In this document: positions 9,030 to 45,000 of the stretch, in pieces
Layout of the letters: each line of letters begins with the position of its first letter
How positions within the stretch are numbered: the first letter of the stretch is position 1
Origin: Escherichia coli
GTDB lineage: Bacteria; Pseudomonadota; Gammaproteobacteria; Enterobacterales; Enterobacteriaceae
NCBI RefSeq assembly: GCF_003334335.1
Contig: NZ_QOWQ01000015.1
DNA: 64,000 bases
Strand: one strand, 5' to 3'
Translations under genes and position numbers: made by a program
The notes under the pieces: model-generated
What the model was told of the DNA's origin: nothing
What the model saw: the letters and a program-made list of their open reading frames with translations, nothing else
The model's database searches: none

Positions 9030-9175
9030 GATTCGCCTGAACATGCCTTTTTTCGTAAGTAAGCAACATAAGCTGTCACGTTTTGTGATGGCTATTAGAA
9101 ATTCCTATGCAACAACTGAAAAAAAATTACAAAAAGTGCTTTCTGAACTGAACAAAAAAGAGTAAAGTTAGTCGC

Positions 9176-9284
9176 GTAGGGTACAGAGGTAAGATGTTCT
9201 ATCTTTCAGACCTTTTACTTCACGTAATCGGATTTGGCTGAATATTTTAGCCGCCCCAGTCAGTAATGACTGGGGCGTTTTTTA
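9176..9284 (+). ncRNA. spf: Spot 42 small regulatory RNA
   Basis: Sequence GTAGGGTACAGAGGTAAGATGTTCTATCTTTCAGACC...GCCGCCCCAGTCAGTAATGACTGGGGCGTTTTTTA matches Spot 42 from recall; ends in an intrinsic terminator. Confidence 0.92.
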
Positions 9285-10312: not shown

Positions 10313-10556
10313 ATAGAGCGAGGACGCTAACAGGAACAATGACTCAGGATGAGGGTCAGGAGCGCCAGGAGGCGAAGACAGAGGATTGTCAGGAAGACAA
10401 ACGTCCGGAGACGTAATTAAACGGAAATGGAATCAACACGGATTGTTCCGGCTAAAGGAAAAACAGGGTGTGTTGGCGGCCTGCAAGGATTGTAAGACCC
10501 GTTAAGGGTTATGAGTCAGGAAAAAAGGCGACAGAGTAATCTGTCGCCTTTTTTCT
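10313..10556 (+). ncRNA. csrC: CsrC, CsrA-sequestering small RNA
   Basis: About 245 nt with at least 13 GGA/AGGA motifs on the + strand and a 3' hairpin aggcgacagagtaatctgtcgcct plus T-run (10525-10554); matches CsrC by recall; ends are approximate. Confidence 0.85.
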
Positions 10557-10623
10557 TTGCTTGCTTTCTGTTAGATTCCGCCGCAAATCTATACTGAATA
10601 AAACGGCTAAAAGACGAACCATT

Positions 10624-11321: not shown

Positions 11322-12695
11322 ATGTCTGTACAGCAAATCGACTGGGATCTGGCCCTGATCCAGAAATATAACTATTCCGGGCCACGATACACCTCGTACC
11401 CGACCGCGCTGGAGTTTTCAGAAGACTTCGGCGAACAGGCGTTTTTACAAGCCGTGGCGCGCTATCCTGAGCGTCCATTATCTCTCTACGTACATATCCC
11501 GTTCTGCCATAAGCTTTGTTACTTCTGCGGTTGCAATAAGATTGTTACTCGCCAGCAGCACAAGGCCGATCAGTATCTGGACGCGCTGGAGCAAGAAATC
11601 GTCCATCGTGCACCGCTGTTCGCCGGGCGTCACGTCAGCCAATTGCACTGGGGCGGCGGAACGCCGACGTATCTGAATAAAGCGCAAATCAGCCGCCTGA
11701 TGAAGCTGCTGCGCGAAAACTTCCAGTTCAATGCCGATGCGGAGATTTCGATCGAAGTCGATCCGCGGGAAATCGAACTGGATGTACTCGATCATTTACG
11801 CGCCGAAGGCTTTAATCGCCTGAGCATGGGCGTGCAGGACTTCAACAAAGAAGTGCAACGTCTGGTTAACCGCGAGCAGGATGAAGAGTTCATCTTTGCA
11901 CTGCTTAACCATGCGCGTGAGATTGGTTTTACCTCCACCAACATCGACCTGATTTACGGCCTGCCGAAACAGACGCCGGAGAGTTTCGCCTTTACCCTGA
12001 AACGTGTGGCGGAGCTGAACCCCGATCGTCTGAGTGTCTTTAACTACGCGCATCTGCCGACCATTTTTGCTGCTCAGCGCAAAATCAAAGATGCTGACCT
12101 GCCGAGTCCGCAGCAAAAACTCGATATCCTGCAGGAAACCATCGCCTTCCTGACGCAATCGGGCTATCAGTTTATCGGTATGGATCACTTTGCCCGTCCG
12201 GATGACGAGCTGGCGGTGGCCCAGCGTGAAGGCGTGCTGCATCGTAACTTCCAGGGCTACACCACTCAGGGCGATACCGATCTGCTGGGGATGGGCGTTT
12301 CCGCCATCAGCATGATTGGCGACTGCTACGCGCAGAACCAGAAAGAGTTGAAGCAGTACTATCAGCAAGTGGATGAACAAGGCAATGCGCTGTGGCGTGG
12401 TATTGCGCTAACGCGTGATGACTGTATTCGCCGCGATGTGATTAAGTCGCTCATCTGCAACTTCCGTCTGGATTACGCCCCTATTGAGAAACAGTGGGAT
12501 TTGCACTTCGCTGATTACTTTGCGGAAGATCTCAAGCTGCTCGCCCCGTTAGCAAAAGATGGGCTGGTGGATGTGGATGAGAAGGGAATACAGGTGACGG
12601 CGAAAGGTCGCTTGCTGATCCGCAACATTTGCATGTGCTTTGATACCTATCTGCGCCAGAAAGCGCGGATGCAGCAGTTCTCTCGGGTGATTTAA
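11322..12695 (+). CDS. hemN: Oxygen-independent coproporphyrinogen III oxidase (radical SAM) HemN
   Basis: ATG at 11322 with AAGGAG Shine-Dalgarno at 11311-11316; radical-SAM CxxxCxxC motif CHKLCYFCGC; 457 aa; recognised by recall. Confidence 0.96.
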   Translation: MSVQQIDWDLALIQKYNYSGPRYTSYPTALEFSEDFGEQAFLQAVARYPERPLSLYVHIPFCHKLCYFCGCNKIVTRQQHKADQYLDALEQEIVHRAPLFAGRHVSQLHWGGGTPTYLNKAQISRLMKLLRENFQFNADAEISIEVDPREIELDVLDHLRAEGFNRLSMGVQDFNKEVQRLVNREQDEEFIFALLNHAREIGFTSTNIDLIYGLPKQTPESFAFTLKRVAELNPDRLSVFNYAHLPTIFAAQRKIKDADLPSPQQKLDILQETIAFLTQSGYQFIGMDHFARPDDELAVAQREGVLHRNFQGYTTQGDTDLLGMGVSAISMIGDCYAQNQKELKQYYQQVDEQGNALWRGIALTRDDCIRRDVIKSLICNFRLDYAPIEKQWDLHFADYFAEDLKLLAPLAKDGLVDVDEKGIQVTAKGRLLIRNICMCFDTYLRQKARMQQFSRVI

Positions 12696-12702
12696 ATAGT
12701 GA

Positions 12703-12741
12703 ATGGCGCTTCGTTTACAAAGTAGAAAACGAAAGCGCCAT
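12703..12741. terminator. Terminator hairpin after hemN
   Basis: Inverted repeat aatggcgcttcgttt ... aaacgaaagcgccat. Confidence 0.6.
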
Positions 12742-12805
12742 CAATGTGCTGAGAACAAGATTGCCTGATGCGCTGGGCAACAAAACCTGTTGAAATTATT
12801 GCTTT

Positions 12806-12890
12806 TGTAGGCCGGATAAGGCGTTTACGCCGCATCAGGCATCTGAGCATGATGCCTGATGCGGCGCTGGTCGCGTCTTATCAGGCCTAC
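12806..12890. repeat. REP/BIME element pair
   Basis: Canonical REP motifs gtaggccggataaggcgtttacgccgcatcaggc and gcctgatgcggcgctggtcgcgtcttatcaggcctac in inverted orientation. Confidence 0.9.
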
Positions 12891-12923
12891 GACTTTCTCC
12901 GCATCCGGCATAAACAACGAGCT

Positions 12924-13034
12924 TCAGCTAAACAGCCCAATCATTGCGGCACACAGCACGGCAGCAACGGCAGTTTGCGGTGTGTGGCTGTCAACTGCGC
13001 CACTCGATACCAGATTAATTATTGATTCCAGCAT
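12924..13034 (-). CDS. yshB: Small hydrophobic protein YshB (36 aa)
   Basis: Manually translated minus-strand ORF MLESIINLVSSGAVDSHTPQTAVAAVLCAAMIGLFS*; below the ORF-track length cutoff; matches the small gene recalled between hemN and glnG. Confidence 0.55.
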   Translation of the reverse strand: MLESIINLVSSGAVDSHTPQTAVAAVLCAAMIGLFS

Positions 13035-13145
13035 AATGACTCTCCCCGTTTTCCGGGCAAGATCATACTGAACTTATCGGAACAGTAAAGCGTAAAATAC
13101 CAGCAATTTGCGCTCAATAATCAATCTTTACACACAAGCTGTGAA

Positions 13146-14555
13146 TCACTCCATCCCCAGCTCTTTTAACTTACGCGTCAGGGTGTTGCGGCCCCAGCCG
13201 AGTAGCCGCGCCGCTTCCTGTTTATGCCCCTGCGTATGTCGCAACGCGGTCGTCAGTAACGTCCGCTCCAGCTCTGGCTGCGCTTCGGAAAGCAGATTTT
13301 GATGACCGGAACGCAGCGCTCTGTCTGCCCACTGCGCAAGAAGCGTCGCCCAGCTGTCCGGTTGCATTTGCGAAGTACTCTCCGCAACCGTTGATTCAAA
13401 CAGTTCGCCGGGCAAATCCTGAATCAACACTTCCTGCCCGGCGGCCATCACCGTTAGCCAGCGGCAGGTGTTTTCCAGCTGGCGCACGTTGCCTGGCCAC
13501 GCCAGACGCGTCAGAGCAGCTTCGGTTTCCGGATGCAGTAACTTCGCTTCTACGCCCAGTTCGCGCGCGGCAACCTGTAAAAAATGGCGCGCCAGACGGG
13601 GAATATCTTCCCGACGTTCGCGCAGCGGCGGCAGATGAACGCGGATAACGTTCAGGCGGTGGAACAGATCCTCACGGAACTTACCTTCCTGCACTCGCTG
13701 TTCGAGATTCTGGTGAGTGGCAGCGATAATCCGCACATCCACTTTCACCGGCGCATAGCCGCCAACGCGGTAAAACTGACCGTCTGCCAGCACGCGCAGC
13801 AAACGCGTCTGCACATCCAGCGGCATATCACCAATTTCGTCGAGGAATAATGTACCGCCATCGGCCTGTTCAAAACGCCCCTGACGAATGGTATTCGCGC
13901 CAGTAAACGCGCCTTTCTCGTGGCCAAACAGTTCTGATTCGATCAAATCTTTTGGGATAGCTGCCATATTCAGCGCGATAAACGGCGCTTTGGCGCGCGG
14001 ACTGTGGCGATGCAGGGCATGAGCGACCAGTTCTTTACCGGTGCCGGATTCGCCGTTAATCAGCACGCTAATAGAAGAACGCGAAAGCCGACCGATAATA
14101 CGGAACACGTCCTGCATGGCTGGCGCTTCGCCGATGATATCGGTCGTTGGGCCGTTAAGCTGAACATTACGCGGCTGCTGCTGTTCCTGGTAATGACTGA
14201 TAGCGCGCTCAACCAGCGCCACTGCTTCGTCGATATCAAACGGTTTGGGCAGATAATCAAACGCCCCTTGTTGATAGGCGCTGACGGCAGCATCCAGATC
14301 GGAATGTGCGGTCATAATGATGACCGGAAGCATTGGATGGCGCTGTTTAATCTGCTTGAGCAGCGCCAGCCCGTCCATTCCCGGCATACGGATATCTGAA
14401 AGCAGCACATCCGGCGTTTTGCTCGCCAGCGCCTCCAGCACTTCTGCGCCGTTCTCAAACGTCGTACAGGTTAAACCTGCCCCAGCGAGCGCACGTTCAA
14501 GCACCCAACGGATGGAACTATCGTCATCGACTACCCAGACTATCCCTCGTTGCAT
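13146..14555 (-). CDS. glnG: Nitrogen regulation protein NR(I), NtrC, sigma-54-dependent response regulator
   Basis: Start placed at ATG 14555 ([12 protein letters not shown]..., 469 aa); receiver domain, AAA+ sigma-54 interaction motifs GESGTGKE and GAFTGA, C-terminal HTH. Confidence 0.96.
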
Positions 14556-17443: not shown

Positions 17444-17532
17444 CGCACCATCGTGCAAAAGGGCTGCACCACGATGTGAATGTTGCACCAATATAGTGCT
17501 TCAATGGAAACATTAAGCACCATGTTGGTGCA
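17444..17532 (-). promoter_or_regulatory. NtrC (NR-I) enhancer binding sites upstream of glnAp2
   Basis: Palindromes GCACCATGTTGGTGCA (17517-17532), TGCACCAATATAGTGCT (17484-17500) and GCACCATCGTGC (17444-17455), centred about -140, -108 and lower relative to the sigma-54 promoter. Confidence 0.75.
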
Positions 17533-17683
17533 ATGACCTTTGGATAACCCTTTTTATGCTCCGTGAAAGCGATCACAAAGGGACTCTGCAATACTTGTTT
17601 GCGGAGGATGTTTGTGATCCTGTTTTGTAGTGCGATTAATCCGTGTACAATAACGCGCTATTTCTAATGCCTGAGGCAAAGTT

Positions 17684-19507
17684 GTGATCGAAAAATTGCG
17701 TAATATCGCCATCATCGCGCACGTAGACCATGGTAAAACCACCCTGGTAGACAAGCTGCTCCAACAATCCGGTACGTTCGACTCTCGTGCCGAAACCCAA
17801 GAGCGCGTGATGGACTCCAACGATTTGGAGAAAGAGCGTGGGATTACCATCCTCGCGAAAAACACCGCTATCAAATGGAATGATTACCGTATCAACATCG
17901 TTGATACCCCGGGGCACGCCGACTTCGGTGGTGAAGTTGAACGTGTAATGTCCATGGTAGACTCAGTGCTGCTGGTGGTTGACGCATTTGACGGCCCGAT
18001 GCCGCAAACGCGCTTCGTAACCAAAAAAGCGTTTGCTTACGGCCTGAAGCCGATTGTTGTTATCAACAAAGTTGACCGCCCTGGCGCGCGTCCTGATTGG
18101 GTTGTGGATCAGGTATTCGATCTGTTCGTTAACCTCGACGCGACCGACGAGCAGCTGGACTTCCCGATCGTTTACGCTTCTGCGCTGAACGGTATCGCGG
18201 GTCTGGACCACGAAGATATGGCGGAAGACATGACCCCGCTGTACCAGGCGATTGTTGACCACGTTCCTGCGCCGGACGTTGACCTTGACGGTCCGTTCCA
18301 GATGCAGATTTCTCAGCTCGATTACAACAGCTATGTTGGCGTTATCGGCATTGGCCGCATCAAGCGCGGTAAAGTGAAGCCGAACCAGCAGGTCACTATC
18401 ATCGATAGCGAAGGCAAAACCCGCAACGCGAAAGTCGGTAAAGTGCTGGGCCACCTCGGTCTGGAACGTATCGAAACCGATCTGGCGGAAGCTGGCGATA
18501 TCGTTGCGATCACGGGCCTTGGCGAACTGAACATTTCTGACACCGTTTGCGACACGCAAAACGTTGAAGCGCTGCCGGCACTCTCCGTTGATGAGCCGAC
18601 CGTTTCTATGTTCTTCTGCGTTAACACCTCGCCGTTCTGCGGTAAAGAAGGTAAGTTCGTAACGTCTCGTCAGATCCTGGATCGTCTGAACAAAGAACTG
18701 GTACACAACGTTGCGCTGCGCGTAGAAGAAACCGAAGACGCCGATGCGTTCCGCGTTTCTGGTCGTGGCGAACTGCACCTGTCTGTTCTGATCGAAAACA
18801 TGCGTCGTGAAGGTTTCGAACTGGCGGTATCCCGTCCGAAAGTTATCTTCCGTGAAATCGACGGTCGTAAACAAGAGCCGTATGAAAACGTGACTCTGGA
18901 CGTTGAAGAACAGCATCAGGGTTCTGTAATGCAGGCGCTGGGCGAACGTAAAGGCGACCTGAAAAACATGAATCCAGACGGTAAAGGCCGCGTACGTCTC
19001 GACTACGTGATCCCAAGCCGTGGTCTGATTGGCTTCCGTTCTGAGTTCATGACCATGACTTCCGGTACTGGTCTGCTGTACTCCACCTTCAGCCACTACG
19101 ACGACGTACGTCCGGGTGAAGTGGGTCAGCGTCAGAACGGCGTACTGATCTCTAACGGTCAGGGTAAAGCGGTCGCGTTCGCGCTGTTCGGTCTGCAGGA
19201 TCGCGGTAAGCTGTTCCTCGGTCACGGTGCAGAAGTTTACGAAGGTCAGATTATCGGTATTCATAGCCGCTCTAACGACCTGACTGTAAACTGCCTGACC
19301 GGTAAGAAACTGACCAACATGCGTGCTTCCGGTACTGACGAAGCCGTTGTTCTGGTTCCGCCTATCCGCATGACTCTGGAACAAGCTCTGGAGTTCATCG
19401 ATGATGACGAACTGGTAGAAGTGACTCCGACCTCTATCCGTATTCGTAAACGTCACCTGACGGAAAACGATCGTCGCCGCGCCAACCGCGCACCGAAAGA
19501 CGATTAA
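17684..19507 (+). CDS. typA: Ribosome-dependent translational GTPase TypA/BipA
   Basis: 607-aa ORF with GTG start at 17684 and GAGG Shine-Dalgarno at 17672-17675; G motifs [18 protein letters not shown]; recognised by recall. Confidence 0.95.
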
Positions 19508-19524
19508 TTTCGTTTTTTAGTCAT

Positions 19525-19557
19525 AAAAAACCTGCCAGCGATGGCAGGTTTTTTTTT
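19525..19557 (+). terminator. Rho-independent terminator after typA
   Basis: Hairpin cctgccagcgatggcagg flanked by A-run and followed by T9. Confidence 0.85.
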
Positions 19558-19723
19558 GCCTGTCGTGAGCGCACACCAATGCGAGTATCTCCCTTATAAG
19601 TCTGTGGTTACGTCAATAGAGAGCTTTGTCACAATTATCTGCAAAGTCATACGCCGTTAATTGCTTTCTTTTTTGGCGTAAGCGTAAGATGCTTCATCTG
19701 GTTTAAACCAAAAGGATTAAACA

Positions 19724-42048: not shown

Positions 42049-45000
42049 TTACACCTTTTCCACATTCACAAGGAAGGACTTAAACTCCGGCGTCTGCGTG
42101 TTCGCATCACCAACGAATGGCGTTAAAGTATTGGCAATAAAGCCTTTTTTAGCTACGCCTTCATAGCCCCAGTGAATCGGAATACCGATGGTATCGATAT
42201 CTTTGCCGTTCGCTTTCAGCGTGCGAATACGTTTGGTCACCACCGCTTTGGCTTTGATATAGCCACGGTTGGAGGAGACTTTCACGGTATCGCCCTGGGC
42301 AATGCCAAGTTTATTCGCCAGCGACTCCCCGATTTCCACAAACTGCTCTGGCTGCAAAATCGCGTTCAACAGCGCGTGTTTGGTCCAGTAGTGGAAGTGC
42401 TCGGTCAGACGATAGGTGGTTCCGACATACGGGAACTTATCGGCTTTACCCAATGCTTCGGCGTCGTCTTTAAAGATACGTGCAGCCGGGTTCGAGATAA
42501 CGTTTGGATGCAGCGGGTTAGTTCCCAGCGGCGTTTCAAACGGCTCGTAGTGTTCCGGGAACGGACCTTCCGCCATCTTATCGAGGGCAAACAGACGCCC
42601 CATGCCTTCCTGCTGCATGATAAACGGCCCGACGCCGCTACCCGGAGGCGCTGCGCTGTAGTCCGGAATATCCCAGCCGGTCCACTTAGTGCCGTCCCAT
42701 TTCAGCAACTGACGCTTCGGATCCCACGGGTTACCCTGCGGATCTGCGGAGGCGCGGTTATACAGAATGCGGCGGTTAAGCGGCCATGCCCATGCCCAGC
42801 CCAGCGTGTTACCGAGGCCAGACGGATCGGCGTTATCACGGCGTGCCATCTGGTTGCCTTCCGGCGTCCAGCTACCGGCGAAAATCCAGCAGCCACAGGA
42901 GGTTGTACCGTCATCGCGCAATTGGGCGAACGAACTAAGTTGTTGGCCTTTCTTGACGATAACCGCACCGGTTGCCGGATCGGTAATATCGGCCAGCGCC
43001 TTACCGTTGCTCTCCATCGCCACTTCTTCTGAAGATGGCTCATGCGGAATGGCGTAGTTCCATGTCATGTTCAGCACCTGGTCCGGGTTCGCGCCACCCT
43101 GTTCGGCATACATCTTGCGCAAGCGCAGGAAGATACCGGAGAGGATCTCGCCGTCAGTCAGCGCAATCCCCGGGGCGTCCGCACCTTTCCAGTGCCACTG
43201 TAACCAGCGACCTGAGTTAACGATAGAACCGTTCTCTTCCGCGAAGCAGGTCGATGGCAGACGGAACACTTCGGTCTGGATCTTCGACGAGTCAACTTCG
43301 TTCAGCTCACCGTGGTTCTGCCAGAAGTTAGAGGTTTCAGTGTTCAGTGGGTCGATGGTGACGAGGAACTTCAGTTTCGACAGACAACCGATCACTTTGT
43401 TTTTGTTCGGGAATGAGGCAACAGGGTTAAAGCCCTGGCAGATATAGCCATTGACCTTGCCCTCTTTCATCATCTCGAAGTATTGCAGGACGTCGTAGCC
43501 TTTATCCCACTTCGGCAACCAGTCAAAGCCCCAGCTATTTTCCGCCGTCGCTTTATCACCAAAGAAGGCCTTCATCATAGAGACGAAGAATTTCGGGTAG
43601 TTGCCCCAGTAGTTTACCTGGCCTTCCAGCAGCGGTTTTGGCGTGTTGGCGGTAAGGTAGGTTTGCAGATCGGTCTGCTTCTCGCTTGGCAGCGTCATGT
43701 AACCTGGCAGGCTCTGCGACAGCAGCCCCAGGTCCGTCAGCCCCTGAATATTGGAGTGACCGCGCAGGGCGTTAACGCCGCCGCCTGCCATCCCCATATT
43801 GCCGAGCAGCAGCTGGATCATCGCCATCGTACGAATGTTTTGCGCACCAACGGAGTGTTGCGTCCAGCCGAGGGCATACAGGAACGAGGCAGTTTTATCG
43901 TGAGCACTGGTTTCTGCGATGTATTCGCAGACTTTCAGGAACGCGTCTTTTGGCGTACCACAGATGTTTTCAACCACATCTGGCGTGTAGCGGGAAACGT
44001 GCTGTTTCAGCAAGTTCCACACGCAGCGCGGATGTTGCAGCGTGGTATCGCGTTTGGCGAAGCCGTTTTCGTCCAGTTCATAAGTCCAGGAGGATTTATC
44101 GTACTTGCGTTTTTCCGCGTCGTAGCCGGTGAACAGGCCATCTTCAAAGCCGTAATCCTCACGCACGATCAGGCTGGCGTTGGTATAGGCTTCGGTGTAT
44201 TCGCGGTTGAATTTTTCATTGTTCAGCAGGTACAGCAATACGCCTGACAGGAAAGCAATGTCAGTACCGGAACGAATAGGGGCATAGTAGTCAGCTACCG
44301 CCGCCGTACGCGTAAAGCGAGGATCGATCACAATCAGCTTCGCGCCGTTGTGAATTTTGGCTTCCATCGCCCAGCGGAACCCGACCGGGTGAGCTTCAGC
44401 GGCGTTACCGCCCATCACCACGACGAGGTTGGCGTTCTTGATGTCGACCCAGTGGTTGGTCATCGCACCGCGACCAAATGTTGGAGCAAGACTTGCTACC
44501 GTTGGTCCGTGTCAGACACGCGCCTGGTTGTCGACCGCGAGCATACCCAGCGCGCGGGAGAATTTTTGCGTTAAATAGCCGGTTTCGTTACTCGACGCGG
44601 AAGCACACAGCATCCCGGTGGAGAGCCAGCGGTTAACAGTCACGCCTTCGGCGTTTTGCGCAATGTAGTTAGCATCGCGGTCTTCTTTCATCAGTTTGGC
44701 GATGCGATCAAACGCCTCTTCCCAACTGATTTGCTGCCATTTATCAGAACCTGGCGCACGGTATTCCGGAAACTTCAGACGGCTTTCGGAGTGGATGAAA
44801 TCCACCAGGCCAGCGCCTTTCGGACAAAGTGCACCGCGGTTGACCGGGTGATCCGGATCGCCTTCGATATGGAAGATAGATGCTTTGGCGTTTTTTGCTC
44901 CGTCACCGAGGCTGTACATCAACAGCCCACAGCCTACGGAACAATAGGTGCAGGTATTACGGGTTTCGCGGGTGCGCAGCAGTTTATACTGCCGGGTTTC

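Follow-up and report, generated by a model that had tools for sequence, protein, structure and literature searches.

yshB, a 36-codon gene between glnG and hemN of Escherichia coli, is a conserved enterobacterial gene for a small, probably membrane-inserted protein

A 36-codon open reading frame (ORF) lies between hemN and glnG in a 64,000-nt stretch of Escherichia coli DNA, referred to here as the window. This ORF is yshB, a known gene that is annotated as a matter of routine, and we are nearly certain that it is a real coding gene. The best explanation of the evidence as a whole, which we regard as very probable, is that yshB is independently transcribed and translated into a 36-residue protein that is found only in the Enterobacteriaceae and the Erwiniaceae. 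Its reading frame is under strong purifying selection, and the promoter-like hexamers, the Shine-Dalgarno sequence, the ATG start codon and the position after glnG are conserved. The gene and its neighbours are arranged in the window as follows.

12924..13034, minus strand: yshB coding sequence, 36 codons plus a TGA stop, identified by translation, RefSeq, NF033841, dN/dS and the open frame
13146-14555, minus strand: glnG (ntrC), the upstream neighbour on the same strand, from the ORF list and the K-12 annotation
about 11322-12695, plus strand: hemN, convergent with yshB, from the ORF list and the K-12 annotation
12806..12917, unstranded: REP/BIME cluster on the 3' side of yshB, where yshB and hemN converge, with the nested inverted repeats I1-I5 (12803-12917)

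Translation of the minus strand from 12924 to 13034 gives MLESIINLVSSGAVDSHTPQTAVAAVLCAAMIGLFS followed by the stop, which reproduces exactly the peptide in the original prediction, an earlier reading of this DNA. The ORF listing contains the same ATG-initiated ORF of 36 aa, and the preceding stop is reached without an earlier in-frame start. Both neighbours named in that prediction were confirmed by the ORF list and the K-12 annotation, and the REP pair that it mentioned is real: the cluster consists of imperfect palindromic units arranged as nested inverted repeats, and the REP-derived Rfam family naRNA4 matches 12810-12887 with 75.2 bits, above its gathering score of 59.5. The placement of the ORF downstream of the REP pair and upstream of glnG holds in plus-strand coordinates only and is reversed in the gene's own orientation, where glnA-glnL-glnG-yshB-REP comes first and the convergent hemN after it.

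The name yshB, which the prediction had also supplied, is confirmed by RefSeq and NCBIfam. In RefSeq the ORF is yshB, encoding a "YshB family small membrane protein", in K-12 MG1655 and in every listed match. The NCBIfam equivalog NF033841 (small_YshB) recognizes the protein with 72.1 bits against a curated cut-off of 34 (E 2.4e-20), aligning residues 1-36 with profile positions 1-40 of 40, and the 90%-identity cluster to which YshB belongs carries the UniProt name YSHB_ECOLI. Pfam PF28018:YshB is precomputed on every orthologue, while our own Pfam-A profile scan of YshB returned no match at E <= 10; this discrepancy most likely reflects different Pfam releases. Over a 501-base query the window is identical in nucleotides to MG1655, with the same position and the same annotation, so that there is no difference between the window gene and that of K-12 YshB (YSHB_ECOLI; NF033841; PF28018): they are the same gene. 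Because current pipelines annotate yshB routinely, it is not the hidden ORF that it had been taken for. Its first report is said to be that of Hemm et al. in 2008, and the gene has reportedly been catalogued since the small-protein surveys of that year.

Promoter and ORF together are single-copy in all 5426 of 5426 complete E. coli genomes at an identity of at least 95%. Two of these 5426 places are on plasmid-labelled records, which are probably mislabelled replicons or chromosomal segments. Beyond the species, the family is narrow. A phmmer search run exhaustively over 1.84 billion representatives matched only 15 sequences, all of them YshB variants. We also ran the family HMM on six-frame translations of 94 loci, made up of 80 listed glnG-anchored loci drawn Proteobacteria-wide (mostly from distant Proteobacteria among the matches listed, with two Enterobacterales loci) and the loci fetched with YshB. 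It recognized loci of the Enterobacteriaceae and Erwiniaceae and no others (E 1e-20 to 1e-25), the next best match having an E of 0.92, and none of the 79 listed loci outside these two families had yshB within 3 kb of glnG. Within the family, the order glnA-glnL-glnG-yshB is invariant in every locus examined, and yshB follows glnG on the same strand in the window, K-12, Citrobacter, the Erwiniaceae, Salmonella, Enterobacter and E. marmotae. The Salmonella orthologue occupies the same locus and differs at 3 of 36 residues (V23L, M31L and I32V). Two variations of the neighbourhood were seen: in Photorhabdus caribbeanensis (L003) a transposase gene directly follows glnG and yshB is absent there, and in Erwinia tracheiphila (L084-L088) an extra gene for an SBP_bac_5 solute-binding protein lies between yshB and hemN.

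Several deposited relatives depart from the 36-residue product. On an ENA metagenome contig (L092 1501-1656) the yshB stop reads TAT, giving a product of 51 aa; since glnG is split into two fragments there, this is probably an assembly error and not natural read-through. The deposited call in Enterobacter asburiae (L091 1501-1683; P0001, P0016) has 60 aa and starts 24 codons upstream, inside the promoter region; it is a mis-called start, the conserved ATG lying 24 codons downstream. Four further proteins (P0002, P0006, P0007 and P0008) agree with E. coli YshB over their first 26-30 residues before running into unrelated C-termini; frameshifts, artefacts of contig ends or rearrangements associated with REP elements at the 3' end of yshB may be the cause.

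A doubtful annotation was seen elsewhere in the window. Positions 10339-10505 on the plus strand (L001 5696-5862) correspond to a RefSeq K-12 pseudogene described as "hypothetical protein, frameshifted; internal stop". This pseudo-CDS is probably spurious because it lies inside the gene of the CsrC sRNA. The RNA features of the whole window, judged by the Rfam gathering score, are these.

10313-10566: CsrC sRNA (Rfam RF00084, 278.7 bits)
9166-9284, plus strand: Spot 42 (Rfam)
17495-17602, plus strand: ES222 (Rfam)
19492-19560, plus strand: STnc370 (Rfam)
44459-44517, minus strand: selenocysteine insertion element SECIS_3 (Rfam)
53596-53666, 53688-53758 and 62603-62680: further matches of the REP-derived naRNA4 (Rfam)

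Across its six frames the window has 306 ORFs that begin with ATG and reach 36 aa or more, and the length of yshB alone is not beyond chance. What lifts yshB above chance is its conservation across species. We compared orthologous DNA from E. marmotae, Salmonella, Citrobacter werkmanii, Enterobacter asburiae, a Klebsiella-like metagenome contig, two Erwiniaceae and E. tracheiphila. The yshB frame is the only one of the six that is free of stops in 9/9 lineages of the Enterobacteriaceae and Erwiniaceae, and the sole indel, in E. tracheiphila, is one whole codon (3 nt). At codon positions 1, 2 and 3, respectively, 24, 10 and 32 of 35 sites are variable. Between E. coli and Salmonella we counted 16.5 synonymous and 3.5 nonsynonymous differences, corresponding to a dN/dS of about 0.04, and the other comparisons of E. 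coli to Enterobacteriaceae genera gave 0.06-0.13. Purifying selection on the frame and indels in multiples of three are what is expected of a protein-coding sequence. The comparison of E. marmotae with E. coli gave a dN/dS of 0.32, a value derived from 8 differences only. The original prediction had proposed conservation across Enterobacteriaceae as a check, and a lost frame in close relatives or a missing translation signal as grounds for giving the ORF up. The frame turned out to be conserved in close and distant relatives alike, the sequence carries translation signals, and YshB has been reported in published work by ribosome profiling and by mass spectrometry.

The region between glnG and yshB carries the following elements.

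13042..13047, minus strand: Shine-Dalgarno sequence GGGGAG, read from the sequence, with the GGAG core 7 nt before the ATG
13062..13089, minus strand: putative sigma-70-like yshB promoter, with a -35 element TTTACT (13089-13084), a 16-nt spacer and a -10 element TATGAT (13067-13062)
13089..13114, minus strand: inverted repeat AGCGCAAA...TTTACGCT, separating the stop codon of glnG from the -35 element of yshB

A G-rich block is kept at the Shine-Dalgarno position in 9/9 lineages. The putative promoter, found in a consensus scan, has 9/12 consensus matches, and its hexamers are kept as TTTAC and GTAT.AT from E. coli through Erwinia. The inverted repeat that abuts it follows the pattern AGCGCAAA...TTT(G/A)CGCT across relatives. 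In E. marmotae, Salmonella, Citrobacter and Enterobacter it forms a hairpin of 9-10 bp with a folding energy of -11 to -12 kcal/mol; in the window one mismatch reduces this to -4.5 kcal/mol, not better than shuffled sequences, and the repeat is absent in the Erwiniaceae. It may mark the end of the glnALG transcript, or it may be a palindrome bound by a regulator or another protein next to the promoter. A second, shorter hairpin, CCCG-GAAAA-CGGG at 13044-13057 on the minus strand, is located where the yshB mRNA is predicted to begin, and its CCC is kept in 8/9 lineages. We considered it as a regulatory element of the 5' UTR and dropped it because the fold is no better than that of shuffled sequence (z = -0.30) and its 3' (G) arm overlaps the G-run of the Shine-Dalgarno sequence. 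A role of yshB as a leader peptide was likewise rejected, since the next gene, hemN, is convergent and no gene follows yshB on its own strand.

The protein has the core of the YshB family, about 36 residues with the pattern H-T-P-Q-T-A...A..C-A. Across 8 sequences from 7 lineages the residues M1, E3, H17, P19, Q20, T21, A22, A25, C28, A29 and F35 are invariant, and T18 is altered only in E. marmotae (T18A, giving HAPQT; locus L093 1501-1611). The most conserved element of YshB is the polar hinge H-T-P-Q-T and not the hydrophobic tail. An AlphaFold2 model built on the 8-sequence alignment has a helix at residues 2-14, a break at 15-18 and a second helix at 19-34, with a moderate mean pLDDT of 71.5. 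The N-terminal helix is amphipathic (hydrophobic moment 1.3-1.9) and the C-terminal helix uniformly apolar. Residues 21-36 form an unbroken apolar run at the extreme C terminus with a best Kyte-Doolittle mean of 2.37 over 15 residues, which bears out the strongly hydrophobic C-terminal half described in the original prediction. The run has 16 residues and the modelled helix spans 19-34, where about 18-20 residues are needed to span a membrane, and the best mean over 19 residues is 1.53, just under the classical threshold of 1.6. All five family members analysed contain zero Lys or Arg, so that there is no positive-inside flank and the orientation of YshB is not given by the positive-inside rule; such an absence is unusual for a protein named a membrane protein. 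Searches of the PDB by sequence and by profile found no solved structure that contains YshB. Judged from these sequence features, a full membrane span is plausible but marginal.

The membrane status of YshB therefore leans mainly on published cleavage of its tagged forms. Yokoyama et al. (PMC10470546) identified YshB as a class I substrate of the intramembrane protease RseP, positive in four assays that include the chromosomal enzyme level in vivo and the purified enzyme in vitro, and they observed a further, RseP-independent periplasmic cleavage. The constructs were N-terminally tagged, and the authors themselves warn of a possible effect of the tags on topology; they state that each of their candidates has one span predicted by TMHMM or TOPCONS. 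Other reports concern its detection. A 2025 proteomics study (PMC12529367) detected YshB, which is without tryptic sites, by top-down mass spectrometry and lists "the small protein YshB" apart from "small membrane proteins". Steinberg et al. (PMC7549839) quote the ribosome profiling of Li et al. 2014, which as quoted there amounts to more than 11,000 copies per cell, and found that C-terminally His-tagged YshB expressed from a plasmid was not detectable in vivo.

Integral insertion of YshB into the membrane is, in our judgement, likely. The single-pass membrane protein of the original prediction is supported by the RseP cleavage and the published topology predictions, and it is weakened by the short apolar run, the low 19-residue mean and the missing Lys and Arg. 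The main competitor to insertion is a real YshB that is soluble or peripheral, for example a helical hairpin in the membrane interface. The same short C-terminal run, the uncharged family and the amphipathic N-terminal helix would suit such a protein, as would the helix-break-helix model and the separate mention of YshB in PMC12529367. Set against this, RseP cuts tagged YshB both in vivo and in vitro, one span is predicted by TMHMM or TOPCONS, and the NCBI curators named the family "small membrane protein"; we consider the soluble or peripheral form unlikely.

For a membrane-inserted YshB, a mechanism can be proposed. The N-terminal amphipathic helix (2-14) would lie at the cytoplasmic interface and the C-terminal apolar helix (19-34), with the invariant Cys28, would insert in the inner membrane, probably in the N-in/C-out orientation of RseP substrates. 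This would place the hinge H17-T-P19-Q20-T21 at the membrane interface, where hinge and Cys28 could form a contact surface. Through its C-terminal helix YshB would bind a larger inner-membrane protein and modulate that partner, and the yshB promoter together with turnover by RseP would determine how much YshB is present. The idea draws on MgrB, MgtS, AcrZ and CydX, which act on PhoQ, MgtA, AcrB and cytochrome bd, respectively, and which are like YshB in size, in having one hydrophobic helix and in having promoters of their own; several small inner-membrane modulators are also candidate RseP substrates. The analogy is functional only. YshB is not related to these modulators in sequence, its apolar segment is shorter and has no cationic flank, and the PDB searches placed it in no solved complex. 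It is not known to have a molecular partner or activity, and EcoCyc-derived tables list it as uncharacterised. By this analogy a partner-modulator role is conceivable, if somewhat short of probable. More speculative is a specific version, in which hinge and Cys28 of the uncharged-flank YshB would dock one inner-membrane protein, a transporter or sensor, under RseP control, and the strict linkage to glnALG would mark a so far unrecognised, post-transcriptional connection to nitrogen or amino-acid physiology; we regard this version as doubtful.

The linkage to glnALG could also be explained if YshB were an accessory of NtrBC nitrogen regulation. The invariant gene order speaks for such a role. 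Against it, yshB has its own conserved putative promoter, in line with the literature, which assigns the gene a promoter of its own and reports no induction under nitrogen limitation. Most glnG-bearing Proteobacteria are without yshB, as the listed loci outside the two families illustrate, and in several genera a hairpin parts yshB from glnG. We therefore find a role as an NtrBC accessory very unlikely.

YshB further resembles type I toxins of the Hok, Ldr, Ibs and TisB kind, and could be a membrane-damaging peptide that is normally repressed. These toxins are short hydrophobic peptides like YshB, and its status as an RseP substrate is shared by HokB and HokE. A consensus scan of the opposite strand over 12600-13300 found no promoter-like site, and the Rfam search at the locus matched only REP-derived RNA, so that neither gave an antisense RNA gene for yshB such as type I systems have. 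The toxin reading is a poor fit because thousands of copies of YshB per cell have been reported. In addition, YshB lacks cationic residues and has no reported toxicity, its gene is single-copy, syntenic in every E. coli genome and strictly conserved at one locus, purifying selection is strong across two families, and there is no PADLOC match. A toxin is thus still less probable than an accessory of NtrBC.

The weakest alternative, a chance frame in a non-coding transcript (the 3' UTR of glnG or an sRNA like NrsZ, which according to the literature lies at the corresponding position downstream of ntrC in Pseudomonas), has in its favour the many ORFs of this length in the window, and it is refuted as the sole explanation, and practically without credit, by the concentration of substitutions at the third position of codons and the detection of YshB itself in PMC12529367, to which are added a dN/dS of 0.04-0.13 within the Enterobacteriaceae, the sole open frame with its in-frame indel, the conserved Shine-Dalgarno sequence and ATG, and a 5' region without significant RNA structure (z = -0.30). 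In principle yshB could still give a dual-function RNA, with a coding and an RNA role.

For genome annotation the value of the ORF is small, since yshB is covered by curated models in both NCBIfam and Pfam, and automatic annotation calls it in every E. coli genome. The value lies in the conservation map, in which the invariant H17, P19, Q20, T21 and C28, together with the absence of Lys and Arg, offer concrete targets for mutagenesis. As cited in later work, Bomjan et al. 2019 (J Bacteriol 201:e00314-19) reported that in Salmonella YshB promotes replication inside host cells as well as virulence; the Salmonella protein differs in this respect from that of E. coli, which is not known to have a phenotype. 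YshB is a protein that is reported to be abundant, is conserved in two enterobacterial families, is degraded by RseP and is reported to be needed in intracellular Salmonella. If the proposed docking of YshB to one inner-membrane protein is true, that single interaction would explain why YshB is needed during the replication of Salmonella in macrophages.
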